Assembly (NCBI GenBank): GCA_964394555.1
Contig: CAYMXW010000001.1
Coordinates: 16,692 to 80,691 of the forward strand
Length of the DNA stretch: 64,000 nt
Direction of reading: 5' to 3'
Source: an uncultured Candidatus Saccharibacteria bacterium
GTDB taxonomy: Bacteria; Patescibacteriota; Saccharimonadia; Saccharimonadales; Saccharimonadaceae
Shown: piece by piece, positions 27,835 to 38,835 of the stretch
Layout of the letters: every line of letters begins with the position of its first letter
Numbering within the stretch: the stretch's first letter is position 1
Made by a program: the position numbers and the translations under genes
Notes under the pieces: generated by a model
What the model saw: only the letters and a program-made list of their open reading frames with translations
Database searches by the model: none
What the model was told of the DNA's origin: nothing

Positions 27835-28755
27835 TTATATCACATTGATAACGTAGAGGATGTAGAAAGCGATGCCGTTTTTGAGCATGTGGAGAAGAAT
27901 GCCGCTGTGGATGGTACCAGTGGCTTCGCGCAAGGCGCAAAGGACGAGACTGAGACAGAAAACATTGACACCGACATTCCATTGGAGGTGAAGTAAGCCA
28001 AAGAGGGCGGAGACGATGAATATCGACAGTACTAGTGATAGTGGGAAGTAGGCATAACTTATAAACGGCAGTCTAACTTTTTCAGGAATAAGAGCGCGGA
28101 GTTTGCCATAGAGCCAACCGCGAAAGATAATTTCTTCGGCCACTGGGGCGACCACAACGAGCGCAAAGAAGGCGGCGAGGCGGTCAAAACCGCTATATAG
28201 AGAGTTGAAGCCAACATCTTGGGCTTGACCGGCGTCAAACCAGGGGAAAATGGCGGAAAAAGCAAAAGTAAAGATGGCGGCGATAAGAAAATAGGCGATG
28301 AGGCCGACCGGTGCGAGACCGATGTCGAGCCAAGTAGGAAGACCATTTAGCCCAAGATTCTCACGGGTGACTTTTAAATCTTTAAATTTTTGAGAGATTT
28401 TGTGGGTTTTGAAAAATAGATAGGGTATGCCAACATTAAGGGCTACCATCAAAGCATAGACAATGAGGTCGTAGATGGCAAGGTTGAGTGGTTCTTGGAG
28501 CTGAGCGCTAGTGAAGCCAAAGACGCGGATGGCGAGAAAAGCGATGAAGTACTGCGAAAAGAGAAAACAAAAGCCAGTCCAAGCTAGCATTGCGATTATA
28601 ATGGAAAAAAGAAGTAAATGAGTTTTTGGCGGGCATCCGCAGTTACGACGTTCGCCCCTTGGGACGCGTGAGCGAAGCGAAGGACGCAGCGACGAGGCCC
28701 GTGACGACGGGCCCGAGGAGCGTCCGCCAGAAACTTCGTTTACTTCTTTTTTCAT
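27835..28755 (-). CDS. CPBP family intramembrane metalloprotease carrying a palindromic insertion near the N-terminus
   Basis: APVAEEIIFRG, FGLLH and HMLKN motifs; multiple TM segments. Confidence 0.88.
   Translation of the reverse strand: MKKEVNEVSGGRSSGPSSRASSLRPSLRSRVPRGERRNCGCPPKTHLLLFSIIIAMLAWTGFCFLFSQYFIAFLAIRVFGFTSAQLQEPLNLAIYDLIVYALMVALNVGIPYLFFKTHKISQKFKDLKVTRENLGLNGLPTWLDIGLAPVGLIAYFLIAAIFTFAFSAIFPWFDAGQAQDVGFNSLYSGFDRLAAFFALVVVAPVAEEIIFRGWLYGKLRALIPEKVRLPFISYAYFPLSLVLSIFIVSALFGLLHLQWNVGVNVFCLSLVLCALREATGTIHSGILLHMLKNGIAFYILYVINVI
28621..28735. repeat. Palindromic element copy 1 (within the CPBP reading frame)
   Basis: Terminal arms AGTTTTTGGCGG / CCGCCAGAAACT; core hairpin GGCCCGT-GACG-ACGGGCC at 28696-28713; GC-rich relative to its surroundings. 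Confidence 0.75.
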
Positions 28756-36400: not shown

Positions 36401-36751
36401 GCCGGTTGGCAAAGTAATCTCTCTCTCTTCAAATATTCTCTCCAGCTTGAATTTTATAAACTCTTGCTCAAAAATTCACCCGAATACCAAAATTATCAAA
36501 TCGACGAAGGACACATTCTCTTTATCAACCCCAGCAAAGAGGACGACGCGGTTTATGACGAAACTTACACCTTTACTGATGATTCCGCTAAAGAATTTCT
36601 TGAACTTGCCAAGGCGGTCTATCATCAAATTAAAACTCTTGATTTTGTCAATGATCCAGAATTCAATCTCCCCACAGATGACGACGCCACGCTCAAAGAT
36701 GTCAAAAATTTCATCGCGCTCTTGCTTGCAAAATCTGCTCAGTTATCGTAA
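33470..36751 (+). CDS. UvrD/PcrA-family helicase fused to a C-terminal PD-(D/E)xK nuclease (AddA/AdnB-like)
   Basis: LAGPGTGKT, LLDEFQDTN, VGDDDQAIF, NYRS, SAHKAKGLEF and FFVAITRAK; C-terminal GKIDH...IYDFKTG...QLEFY. Confidence 0.92.
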   Translation: MKLNQAQRAAVEYLDGPLLVLAGPGTGKTQLLSSKVAYILEHTDTNPENILCITFTESGTANMRERLKSIIKKSANKIHISTYHQFGTDILFEYQQYSTELTRKLDDVISEVSAYKIIKDILKDLPPRDILKNDNIKDIISTISEAKSARLTSDDLAKISEHNEAESASLNAEIAPVLALTTGKTLKFDTALNEVYQPLGEILAKHTTNKPITKHIEPLTNHLARTLNEAIATELAKDKPSMKSLTNWRNANFELDRQHNWRLKNIVANKKLISLANVMSQYQAHLEKNGLYDFDDMIELAIQALKNDRGFRLTLSEKYQYILLDEFQDTNPAQFELIKLLTDYEKPNIMAVGDDDQAIFAFQGANVSNLFDFKEHYEAKTVVLTENYRSTQDILDLSRNIANQLDESFAKNHQITKNLLAKNPATPNTIERHSFPEANTEYAWVAEQIQALISQGENPADIAVIAPKHKYITPLLPHFKIHNLPIAYEKKDNIFDDLAIRQLIKLARFVYKLAQNEPTSHLALEVLSFPFWEIDPLTAIKITHKAHIDKRPILEALAHSDDPAIIKIRDFITGLITQAYDAPLELFLDYLIGTAAMPNYNPSPFLSYYQNHQTDYDIYQLYNYLHVLRDACIKHTKPLTSPRLKEFISFVDDYEEAKYQLINTSPYQTASQAVQLMSAHKAKGLEFKYVFLIAVDDRAWGNSKGNNNMLSLPKNLIQIRHTGATDDECIRLFFVAITRAKSHLYLTNSDADFSAKSADSLEYLNEHDNLSPFLPVNNQTIIRHDQNSDQLLQTLHTGWVAAYQKLDTNLKDLLIKSLDNYRLTATDLTTFIDLRYAGPQTFYQNCVLRAPKEPMSNNIILGNLIHSVFERVTKEKIDDSEALEYFRERLDEQPLTATDRAEILENGTHALEISLKEFGVLLRASTAMSEVDFRTHHIQADNVPITGKIDHMQIDKPHKVISIYDFKTGNHHAPGKRAGWQSNLSLFKYSLQLEFYKLLLKNSPEYQNYQIDEGHILFINPSKEDDAVYDETYTFTDDSAKEFLELAKAVYHQIKTLDFVNDPEFNLPTDDDATLKDVKNFIALLLAKSAQLS

Positions 36752-37036: not shown

Positions 37037-37161
37037 AGCAATCTAAACTACAAATTTGCGAAATCATAAAGGAAGTTCTCACGAGAACTTCCAAGTGAGC
37101 ATCGCCCGTAACGACGGGCCGATGCGAACGAGATTGAGAAAATTTCGTAGTTTAGGTTGCT
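37037..37161. repeat. Palindromic element copy 2 (intergenic, three-way junction)
   Basis: ~28-bp imperfect outer arms enclose a perfect 10-bp hairpin (37071-37092) and the family core hairpin GCATCGCCCGT-AACG-ACGGGCCGATGC (37099-37125). Confidence 0.8.
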
Positions 37162-37501
37162 ATTTTTCAGCTTCGGATTCCTTAGCCGCCTTCTTTGCTG
37201 CTTCCTTAGCAGCTTTGGCGGCTTTATTGCTTAGTGCCGCCTTGCGCTCGGCCGCTTTCGCGGCGCGTGCCTTAAAGCGATCTACGCGACCCTCGGTATC
37301 GATAATCTTCTCTTCACCAGTGAAGAACGGGTGTGATGCCGAAGAAATCTGAATTTTTACCAACGGATATTCTTTGCCGTCTGTCCACTTAATAGTCTCC
37401 TCGCTTTTGGCGGTGGACTTCGTCAAAAACGAAAACTTTGCCGCTTCGTCAGAAAATACGACATAGTTATAATCTTTAGGGTGTAACTCTTTATTGCTCA
37501 T
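37160..37501 (-). CDS. rpmE: 50S ribosomal protein L31 (type B, Cys-free) with an Ala/Lys-rich tail
   Basis: KELHPKDY, ISSASHPFFTG and IDTEGRVDRF. Confidence 0.95.
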   Translation of the reverse strand: MSNKELHPKDYNYVVFSDEAAKFSFLTKSTAKSEETIKWTDGKEYPLVKIQISSASHPFFTGEEKIIDTEGRVDRFKARAAKAAERKAALSNKAAKAAKEAAKKAAKESEAEK

Positions 37502-37566
37502 AATTCCTGCTATTATATCAAACTTCCTCAGATTTGACAACTGCGACTTTGAGATTTTGCCTGAAG

Positions 37567-38835
37567 CTAAGTGGCAGTTTTACGTTGTAGCACAATTAGG
37601 TTCTCGATGTGGGGAGTGCGGGGGAAGAAATTGAAGGGCTGGAGATGAGTAATTTGGTATTTTTGCTGGAGAATCTGGACATCGCGAGCTTGAGTGGCGG
37701 GGTTGCAAGAGAGGTAAATGATAGTAGGCGGGTGCTCGGCTAGGAGTTTGTCTAGAAGTTTGGCGTGGCAACCGGCGCGAGGGGGATCGAGAATTACGGT
37801 GGTGTCGTTTTCGATAAAATCAAGTGCGTCTTCAGATTTACTAAGAAATGTTGAAATGTTACTCTTGGGGACGCGTCCGGTCGGCCCGTCGCCACGGGCG
37901 ACCGGCGCTGCTTCTCGCGCTGCCGCGCTCCGAACGCCCCCAAGAGCAGCATTTCCAACATTTCTAACCAGTTCCGAATAGGCGGATTTGTCGACTTCGA
38001 CGAGAGTTAAAGTGCGGTCGCGAGCAACTGAGAGACCAATGGTGCCGACGCCAGCGTAAAGATCAAGTACTTTATTAGTAGTAATATGGCGTTTAATTTC
38101 GGTAAGGGCCATTTCGTAAACTGGTAGGTTGATTTGGAAAAAGCCGTTGGGTGAATAGGAATATTCGTAGCCGAGAATAGTGTCGGTGAGGGGTGTAAAA
38201 GTAGGGTGGGGCTGACCGTTTTCGTAGAGGCCGCCGCTGACAGTTCCCTGCTGGTTGCAACGCAGGAGCAGAGATTGAAAGCGACGCGCTTCGGCATGCT
38301 CGGCATTAAGCTGGTCGACGATTTCAGTAGCCTTTTTGAAAATCTCGGGGCGTTCTAGGCTAGACTGAGTAATCGGGATTTTGTAATGGGAGCCGCGTTG
38401 ATGAAAGGCAAGGCTGATTTTGCTCGTCTCGTTATCCCAATAAAGCGCATATTCCATTTTATTGCGATAATGAAAATCTTTATTATCAGTTACAGGAAGT
38501 CTTTCAAACATGTCTGTTTGAAAGACTTCTTTGACCAACAAAGACTTTTGTTCTAGTTCATAATCGTAATCCATAATTTGCCAAGGCGAGGTGGAGAGGT
38601 AGCAAGCGTCACGAGGTTCGACGCGGTGCAAAGAGTGGTCAGCGGTTTTGGCAGCGATGGCTTCGATGTAGTGGGTTTTAATTTTGGTGGGTTTGAATTC
38701 GATGACGGTTTCGCCTGGCAGAGCGTTCCAAAACATGGCTTTTTTACCATCGGAAAGTGTGCCGATTCCCTGTCCACCAGGAATCAAGCTAGTAATCTTG
38801 ACTTTTTCGGAAGATATGTTCTGATATTTATTCAT
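37567..38835 (-). CDS. RlmD/TrmA-family RNA m5U methyltransferase with an in-frame palindromic insertion
   Basis: TRAM-like N-terminus, YRNKME, FFQIN, LDLYAGVG, LDPPRAG, YLSCNP and FFPRTPHIE. Confidence 0.92.
   Translation of the reverse strand: MNKYQNISSEKVKITSLIPGGQGIGTLSDGKKAMFWNALPGETVIEFKPTKIKTHYIEAIAAKTADHSLHRVEPRDACYLSTSPWQIMDYDYELEQKSLLVKEVFQTDMFERLPVTDNKDFHYRNKMEYALYWDNETSKISLAFHQRGSHYKIPITQSSLERPEIFKKATEIVDQLNAEHAEARRFQSLLLRCNQQGTVSGGLYENGQPHPTFTPLTDTILGYEYSYSPNGFFQINLPVYEMALTEIKRHITTNKVLDLYAGVGTIGLSVARDRTLTLVEVDKSAYSELVRNVGNAALGGVRSAAAREAAPVARGDGPTGRVPKSNISTFLSKSEDALDFIENDTTVILDPPRAGCHAKLLDKLLAEHPPTIIYLSCNPATQARDVQILQQKYQITHLQPFNFFPRTPHIENLIVLQRKTAT
37844..37965. repeat. Palindromic element copy 3 (inside the methyltransferase reading frame)
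   Basis: ~27-bp arms AGAAATGTTGAAATGTTACTCTTGGGG / CCCCAAGAGCAGCATTTCCAACATTTCT; core CCGGTCGGCCCGT-CGCC-ACGGGCGACCGG at 37877-37905. Confidence 0.8.

Follow-up and report, generated by a model that had tools for sequence, protein, structure and literature searches.

A palindromic three-way junction between rpmE and a zinc-finger gene belongs to a dispersed family of hairpin repeats in Saccharibacteria

The Rickettsia palindromic elements (RPE), reportedly described by Ogata et al. in 2000 and 2002, are said to be ~100-150 bp long and to lie, in many instances, in frame within housekeeping genes; to our knowledge, they have no transposase of their own. The repeat family that we describe here from Saccharibacteria resembles them in being made up of short palindromes in a reduced genome, inserted in frame and read through. 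However, RPE share their sequence along their full length, whereas the Saccharibacteria copies have only a centre of 66-75 nt in common, enclosed by a stem that is locus-specific; flips in place, an orientation linked to GC skew and a host from another phylum set the two further apart, by description only.

Other described systems share one or another of these traits. The palindromic GC clusters known from mitochondria, those of yeast included (e.g. GC42; PMC4478555), and the hairpins of sponge mitochondria (PMC2800124) are GC-rich and mobile-like, with no encoded enzyme. As in our family, GC clusters occupy a small, AT-richer genome, are constrained in structure, merge and shuffle their units and leave footprints after loss (PMC4478555), but they are ~40 nt long, mostly intergenic and accompanied by a direct AG target duplication, they reside in an organelle, and they have no long copy-specific stem. 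REP, BIME and REPIN sequences are likewise multi-copy palindromes, extragenic and often found at the 3' ends of genes, where they may serve as terminators or mRNA stabilisers; these are 20-40 bp in length, conserved in sequence, end in GTAG or CGTC and depend on a RAYT (PMC3733652), whereas the Saccharibacteria repeats measure ~120 bp, form a three-way junction, are mostly intragenic and come without a RAYT. The MITEs, such as Correia/NEMIS, ERIC and Coxiella QMITE1/2 (PMC5896051), are also non-autonomous long hairpins (100-400 bp) that may overlap ORFs and may act as terminators or sRNAs, but their terminal inverted repeats are conserved and flanked by direct target duplications; in our family the termini vary and the centre is conserved. 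Finally, the locus studied here recalls an ordinary Rho-independent bidirectional terminator, with an A-tract, stem-loop and T-tract between convergent genes, and relatives have such terminators at the same place; it differs in that the stem encloses a 68-nt branched core of a dispersed family, and in that an AT-rich stem adjoins the T-tract.

Within the window, by which we mean the whole 64,000-nt stretch of a Candidatus Saccharibacteria genome analysed here, the element at 37037-37161 is a Y-shaped palindrome of 125 bp between a zinc-finger gene and rpmE (Table 1). As RNA, its + strand is predicted to form a three-way junction with a minimum free energy of -59.1 kcal/mol (z -8.4, with none of 200 shuffles as good); the - strand folds too (-52.3 kcal/mol, z -6.2), as does the segment when treated as DNA (-36.5 kcal/mol, z -7.9). 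The arms, both hairpins and the Y shape had been proposed in a sequence-only reading of this DNA, with which the coordinates and folds agree, and one arm does begin inside the rpmE stop codon, as had been stated (CTA, at 37160-37162). The outer arms pair at 21 positions, one of them T.G, and have a single bulge.

Table 1. Coordinates of the element, its parts and associated features, as positions in the window
Feature	Start	End	Strand	Remarks
Second copy, long core variant	28604	28753		37.3 bits; -82.6 kcal/mol (z -9.4)
Low-divergence tract versus G015	36713	37174		5 differences in 462 nt (1.1%), sharp edges; covers zinc-finger promoter, gene and element
Zinc-ribbon gene, 62 aa, CxxCxGxG type	36833	37021	+	Convergent on element; weak Pfam matches to Anti-TRAP and DnaJ_CXXCXGXG
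Left A5 tract	37033	37037	+	U5 3' of hairpin for rpmE-sense transcripts; just outside left arm
Outer arm, 5' half, AGCAATCTAAACTACAAATTT	37037	37057		AT-rich, copy-specific; pairs with 37140-37161
Inner closing stem of core, 5' half (G..AATC)	37059	37065		From fold
Hairpin 1, GGAAGTTCTC-AC-GAGAACTTCC	37071	37092		Variable junction branch; from fold
Hairpin 2, family signature	37095	37129		GCATCGCCCGT-AACG-ACGGGCCGATGC core hairpin at 37099-37125
Inner closing stem of core, 3' half (GATT..C)	37132	37138		From fold; followed by core A-run
Outer arm, 3' half, AAATTTCGTAGTTTAGGTTGCT	37140	37161		Copy-specific; final 2 nt within rpmE stop codon
rpmE (ribosomal protein L31)	37160	37501	-	Convergent on element; PF01197, E 2.3e-20
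Right T5 tract	37163	37167	+	3' of hairpin for zinc-finger-sense transcripts; within last rpmE codons
Third copy	37844	37965		In frame in RlmD-like methyltransferase gene; 65.1 bits; -83.3 kcal/mol (z -7.8)
Orphan arms	38496	38529		Perfect 15-bp inverted repeat with 4-nt loop, in methyltransferase gene; G015 has arms and core

The surroundings of the element have a history of their own. The sister genome G015, which is 80-95% identical in DNA and whose signature sites we mapped onto this genome, has the opposite orientation over a block of 5.6 kb that extends here from 31962 to about 37524-37584; the block comprises one minus-strand gene, a UvrD-like helicase, the zinc-finger gene, the element and rpmE. 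GC skew in the block is reversed (-0.21 to -0.25, and -0.087 in rpmE) relative to the +0.07 to +0.43 found elsewhere, which implies a recent inversion in this lineage. The element had been thought to mark the right end of the skew-reversed block, a claim that we correct: rpmE, to its right, is still reversed, and because the block with rpmE runs to about 37540, the element lies ~380 nt inside it. No inverted repeats longer than 9 nt were found at the two ends of the block. The G015 sequence beyond it is unmatched here, so the rearrangement was not a simple inversion. A direct repeat, AGATTGAGAAAA, was considered as the block boundary and dismissed as chance-level, being one of 96 12-mers that recur within 6 kb in the window.

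The tract of low divergence that covers the element (Table 1) has flanks that are 10.8% divergent on both sides; with its sharp edges, this tract of ~460 bp suggests a recent exchange between lineages, in which recombination would have brought in the zinc-finger gene and the element as one piece. Left of position 36713, the last 250 nt of the helicase gene are hyper-divergent (29-36 differences per 100 nt). At the orthologous site, G015 carries the element without a difference, and so does a strain from another sample (99.9% identical); since the adjoining zinc-finger gene is equally undiverged, the element's 100% identity with G015 is not evidence of constraint. That strain furnished the only contig with an identical L31, and the element is present there. 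An empty allele of the site was not found, the 28 same-genus relatives having other rpmE neighbours; the 3' end of the zinc-finger gene, scanned against metagenomes, gave no match, scans with hairpin 1 returned unrelated palindromes only, and the exact zinc-finger protein was not found in database records. Nor was that protein found beside other element copies in 1.3 Mb of element-centred loci, and we rejected it as an element-associated factor on account of this absence.

The window holds two further copies, 28604-28753 and 37844-37965, in which the arms are again paired and peculiar to the copy; both were located by an inverted-repeat scan and folding, and have GC-rich centres. The inner hairpin had been said to be conserved among the three copies, and this holds for hairpin 2 (GCCCGT-N4-ACGGGC), which all of them share; it does not hold for hairpin 1, the GGAAGTTCTC/GAGAACTTCC hairpin, which occurs only in the 37037-37161 copy and two sister-genome copies. 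Across the 628-kb genome, CCCGT-N4-ACGGG was found ten times in a GC-rich context, and each occurrence folds with a long stem of its own. An alignment (A3) of 40 cores from 25 genomes was the basis of a covariance model (R1) that carries the hairpin 2 pairs only, because hairpin 1 varies in sequence and length and thereby defeats automatic structural alignment. R1 gives 37037-37161 a score of 65.1 bits (E about 7e-16), equal to that of the 37844-37965 copy, and detects at least 14 copies in the genome; over the window, nothing beyond the three copies scored below E 0.09. Searched across Saccharibacteria, this custom model found other copies, and the wider claim of the sequence-only reading, of a multi-copy palindromic family in which the inner hairpin is kept and the outer arms are copy-specific yet paired, is supported by the model, the folds and a comparison of the arms.

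The shared unit is a core of ~66-75 nt, around each of which lies an AT-rich, locus-specific stem of 15-30 bp. The core reads as a short T-run, a G-rich closing stem, the variable hairpin 1, the conserved hairpin 2, a C-rich closing strand and an A-run. All of these are found at 37037-37161, where hairpin 2 stands on its covarying lower stem and the 21-bp AT-rich arms are common to no other locus, but the core there is AT-richer (47% G+C). RNAalifold recovered hairpin 2 from the 40 cores, with six covarying pairs. In its lower stem, 67 double-change cells were counted against 19.4 +/- 3.6 after shuffling (none of 500 shuffles as high) and at most 15 in slid controls, while the five apical pairs are invariant in 40/40 sequences; all 67 covarying cells pass from one Watson-Crick pair to another, and no G-U intermediates occur among 437 paired cells. 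The core closest to that of 37037-37161 belongs to a second sister-genome copy (G015:C26:19889-19961), 82% identical and with the same hairpin 1, whose arms are unrelated. Between the two, the inner closing stem differs by two compensated pairs (AATC/GATT against GACC/GGTC), and the lower stem of hairpin 2 differs by two more between 37037-37161 and the copy after tuf (CATCG/CGATG against CCACG/CGTGG). The copy after tuf, the EF-Tu gene (G000:C5:560-720), carries an extra 55-nt segment on its 3' side here, absent from the sister genome.

The family is narrowly distributed. Of 301 genomes that sample the class, R1 matched 18, and these belong to three genera of a single family: among 160 sampled genera, only the organism's own (Ca. 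Nanosyncoccus-like) and two neighbouring ones match. Within the own genus, 13 of the 18 sampled genomes have R1 matches and 59 of 121 match by core BLAST; copies number ~10-25 per genome, and many genomes of the same genus have none. A 19-mer of hairpin 2, CGCCCGTAACGACGGGCCG, is found almost exclusively in gut and rumen Saccharibacteria among 185,579 GTDB species represented by one genome each. The element has no match in Rfam, whether at the gathering threshold or with E relaxed to 10 (the highest sub-threshold score over 37037-37161 is 22 bits, with a cut-off of 70 bits; the window's matches are tRNAs only), and the literature searched has no description of such repeats in Saccharibacteria. 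As a family, these GC-rich DNA hairpins of gut Saccharibacteria are apparently new to the literature.

Comparison with the sister genome reveals a turnover of sites. G015 has 21 signature sites, against one for a reversed control pattern; five or six sites are occupied in both genomes and at least nine in G015 alone, where the insert amounts to 84-117 nt net. Conversely, the methyltransferase copy at 37844-37965 is present in this genome only (net +87 nt versus G015). Its closest homologues are 70-74% identical by local BLASTP and about 80% identical in an alignment; in three insertion-free relatives (80% identical), a native loop of 12 residues, KNCxxxxAxxVL, runs uninterrupted, and here it is replaced by 41 residues, which are the 122-nt palindrome. 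As the site is occupied only here, and the sister and these relatives keep the native loop, at least one new site has arisen recently.

Existing sites change as well. At two of the six shared sites the core is reversed between similar arms: one is at window position 28698, within the 28604-28753 copy, and the other is in the gene for an aminoacyl-tRNA synthetase of class I, probably IleRS; the two genomes' cores there differ at 2 of 74 nt. The same core in opposite orientation between similar arms, at two sites, shows that cores flip in place. The arms at 28698 also show at least two fully compensated changes between species (GAAGTAAA/TTTACTTC versus GAAACAAA/TTTGTTTC). The pairing of arms had been read as a sign of structure-level selection, which is not required: flipping in place offers a neutral route, by arm-to-arm conversion, to compensated changes. 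Cores can also be lost with the arms left behind, given that the arms at 38496-38529 have no core here and enclose one in G015; these orphan arms encode EVFQTDMFERL in place of the native sequence of insertion-free orthologues, a change of about 10 residues.

Several further copies and edges deserve mention in their own right. In G015, the methyltransferase gene is occupied at a second site (C26 8120-8340, L104), and a further copy lies between convergent genes whose stop codons abut here (C26 19850-19973, L104); both of its arms begin inside the two stop codons. Several contig ends of the present assembly (C7:76, C20:11668-11753 and C21:11105) fall in or beside copies that are intact in G015, and the repeats probably break the assembly there.

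Among 143 copies, 14 non-orthologous pairs have cores at least 97% identical over at least 60 nt and none of these pairs share arms; resemblance between arms is almost confined to orthologous sites. An identical 71-nt core occurs in three G015 copies with the flanks TTTGAGG, TTGCGGG and TTCTTGGG. At the synthetase site, by contrast, 14 of 57 species are occupied and their arms are mutually similar (e.g. GAAGAATACTCTTTCGAGG), while core type and orientation vary. Unrelated arms around identical cores, together with related arms at the synthetase site, indicate that arms are locus-specific and long-lived, and that cores are exchangeable.

Where the arms come from may differ between sites. In the 37844-37965 copy, the left arm is native up to AATGCT and the right arm mirrors it, displacing about 12 native nt; the net insert of 87 nt corresponds to the core plus one arm, as against a palindrome of 122 nt, and is consistent, on comparison of the sequences, with the mirroring of a native arm to the opposite flank. 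Elsewhere the net insert is 102-117 nt, nearly the entire palindrome. Only the outer 8-10 nt of one arm are native, and mirrored opposite, at three G015-only sites, and at an intergenic site, where this genome has abutting stop codons (ATCAAATAATTATTGC) and no hairpin, the G015 insert brings 15-nt arms without counterpart. No direct target-site duplication is evident in pairs of filled and empty sites, whose comparators are just 80-90% identical.

Placement and orientation point to a process acting on DNA. Counting as in-gene any copy with a frame open for 150 nt on both sides, 96 of the 144 distinct copies lie inside open reading frames, several frames being used, with 60 in the same orientation as the gene and 36 in the opposite one; the in-frame insertion and read-through known from RPE are thus found in the family, while the 37037-37161 copy is itself intergenic. 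The strand with the purine-rich hairpin-2 loop is the C-rich strand in 78 of the 95 copies with a clear local skew, an orientation that makes a replication-linked process on single-stranded DNA plausible. GC skew in the window is of the replication type, the + strand being G-rich irrespective of gene direction. About three quarters of the long ORFs in the whole window lie on the C-rich strand, though the + strand is G-rich: one possibility is that the lagging strand carries most genes here, the other that G-richness does not mark the leading strand in this lineage as it usually does.

Taking these observations together, we consider it likely that 37037-37161 is a DNA-level copy of a palindromic family whose core is selfish and transposase-less, and that it probably serves as a local terminator. 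The core would be a selfish hairpin that passes from locus to locus, as a copy or in exchange, through a single-strand process linked to replication, and the stem would be built or maintained locally; this particular copy would sit within the A5...T5 remnants of an old terminator and act as the hairpin for both genes. We also entertain, as a speculation more doubtful than not by a good measure, a new kind of bacterial mobile DNA, in which a transposase-less, GC-rich junction core of 70 nt would be copied at the replication fork without its long stem; the stem would arise at the target, by snap-back (self-primed) synthesis in which one flank is mirrored over the other, and would then persist as a locus-specific 'landing pad' on which cores flip, go and are replaced.

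The alternative that fares best supposes old loci with no current transposition. Arms would be long-lived and specific to their locus, gene conversion via the short conserved ends would homogenise or swap the cores, alleles would spread by transformation and homologous recombination, and absences would be due to hairpin-stimulated deletion; we regard this as unlikely. Related arms across species at the synthetase site, with varying core type and orientation, speak in its favour, as do the core loss seen in orphan arms, the identical cores between unrelated arms and the ~460-bp near-identical tract around 37037-37161, itself a sign of recent recombinational exchange between lineages. However, 37844-37965 is occupied here only, with the loop of 12 residues uninterrupted in the sister and three relatives, copy number ranges, within one genus, between 0 and more than 14 per genome, and the bias of orientation with GC skew is hard to obtain from conversion alone.

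Could the element instead be selected as RNA? A structured ncRNA, as the sequence-only reading had offered among its options, or a cis-regulatory RNA (e.g. a 3'-UTR or ribosomal-protein regulatory motif) would account for the strong + strand fold and for the covariation of hairpin 2, but we think it very improbable: both strands fold, Rfam holds no match even with E relaxed to 10, copies lie within genes in both orientations, the changes in paired positions are Watson-Crick only, with the G-U intermediates missing, and cores flip in place between sister species. We give equally little credence to a functional DNA site, kept for the cell's benefit, for instance as a binding site or landmark for a nucleoid, replication or DNA-uptake protein. 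The invariant apex of hairpin 2, the genus-wide distribution and the skew-linked orientation would suit such a site, but not a load of ~10-25 copies in some genomes and zero in many others of the same genus, a scattered placement that includes in-frame insertions in housekeeping enzymes, or an occupancy that is highly variable between sister species.

A REPIN-like mobile unit was another option of that reading; to a REP/REPIN or IS200/IS605-derived palindrome, moved by a Y1 transposase (RAYT/TnpA), we assign a very slim chance. The elements are indeed multi-copy palindromes, and their skew-type orientation bias resembles that of HUH single-strand transposition; the enzyme, however, is missing, PF01797 being absent from this genome, from G015 and from 114 of the 121 genus genomes in searches whose positive controls matched. 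It is present in the other seven, five of which have no element match, so that it is unlinked to the presence of the element. Terminal sequences are not conserved either: the conserved 20-40-bp palindrome of REPs and REPINs, with its GTAG/CGTC end and inverted doublets, was not found, and neither were the terminal inverted repeats that MITE copies have in common. The arms are copy-specific and differ everywhere, and a search for a hidden arm consensus gave weak composition signals only, of at most 0.26 bits per position outside the T-run.

That the element is nothing other than an intrinsic terminator, large and bidirectional, which arose on the spot to serve the zinc-finger gene and rpmE, we find barely credible, for although the genes converge, A5/T5 tracts are present and relatives have terminators at the same position, its core is homologous to dozens of copies, mostly coding and without T-tracts, a G015 copy of the same subtype sits at a point where, in this genome, two stop codons abut with no hairpin between them, and the family data contradict this as a full explanation, leaving it to survive as a local role only.

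Such a local role is part of our preferred reading, of a family copy with a selfish core. In 28 same-genus relatives, rpmE is followed on its 3' side by a short GC-rich hairpin and T-tract, and in G020, which has the only other zinc-finger homologue found, the gene is followed by a textbook bidirectional terminator, AAAAAGCGGAGC-TAGA-AGCTCCGCTTTTT. Here, AAAAAGC...GCTATTTTT brackets the whole element, which is the sole copy among 39 intergenic ones to have a run of at least four Ts after the stem on both strands: a stable hairpin followed by a U-tract, as in intrinsic terminators, is found in both directions, with U5 on the 3' side of the outer stem. Hairpin 1 together with UUUAUGAUUU was likewise picked out, on the minus strand, as terminator-like. 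The A5...T5 flanks look like the remnant of the ordinary bidirectional terminator seen in relatives; it is from the T-runs on both sides, and from the relatives' terminators at the same position, that we place the element, as far as sequence comparison can tell, probably inside the old rpmE/zinc-finger terminator, where it plausibly now supplies the terminator hairpin for both convergent genes. A terminator role general to the family was rejected, as T-runs after the stem are no more frequent in intergenic copies (8/39) than in coding ones (10/68), and most family members have no T-tracts.

Other hairpins are seen at this position too. The rpmE terminators of five relatives (L010, L016, L023, L024 and L026) share the loop motif CTCATAACTGCGAG on stems that differ in sequence, which may reflect either orthologous compensatory evolution or a second small hairpin family. 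In G022 (C9, L029), the position of the rpmE terminator is taken by a different, perfect long hairpin of 150 nt centred on GGGCCATATCCGGAATTACAGTTCCGGTCTTAGGCCC, which suggests that sites of this kind are in use by other palindromic families as well.

Regardless of how the cores are moved, the picture is one of ultrasmall, host-dependent bacteria, with genomes of ~0.6 Mb that are thought to be streamlined, tolerating dozens of putatively selfish hairpins. Most of these are translated inside essential enzymes, and some, like 37037-37161, take over terminator positions; if the terminator reading of this locus is true, a repeat has been absorbed into a working terminator that separates the gene of a ribosomal protein from the next one. 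The family turns the usual logic of small mobile elements around, its centre being conserved and its ends locus-specific, and flipping in place and a replication-strand bias are found without any recognisable transposase. The mechanism, if worked out, would add a new route of DNA mobility, and would also explain the recurrent insertions, assembly breaks and annotation artefacts in the genomes of Saccharibacteria.
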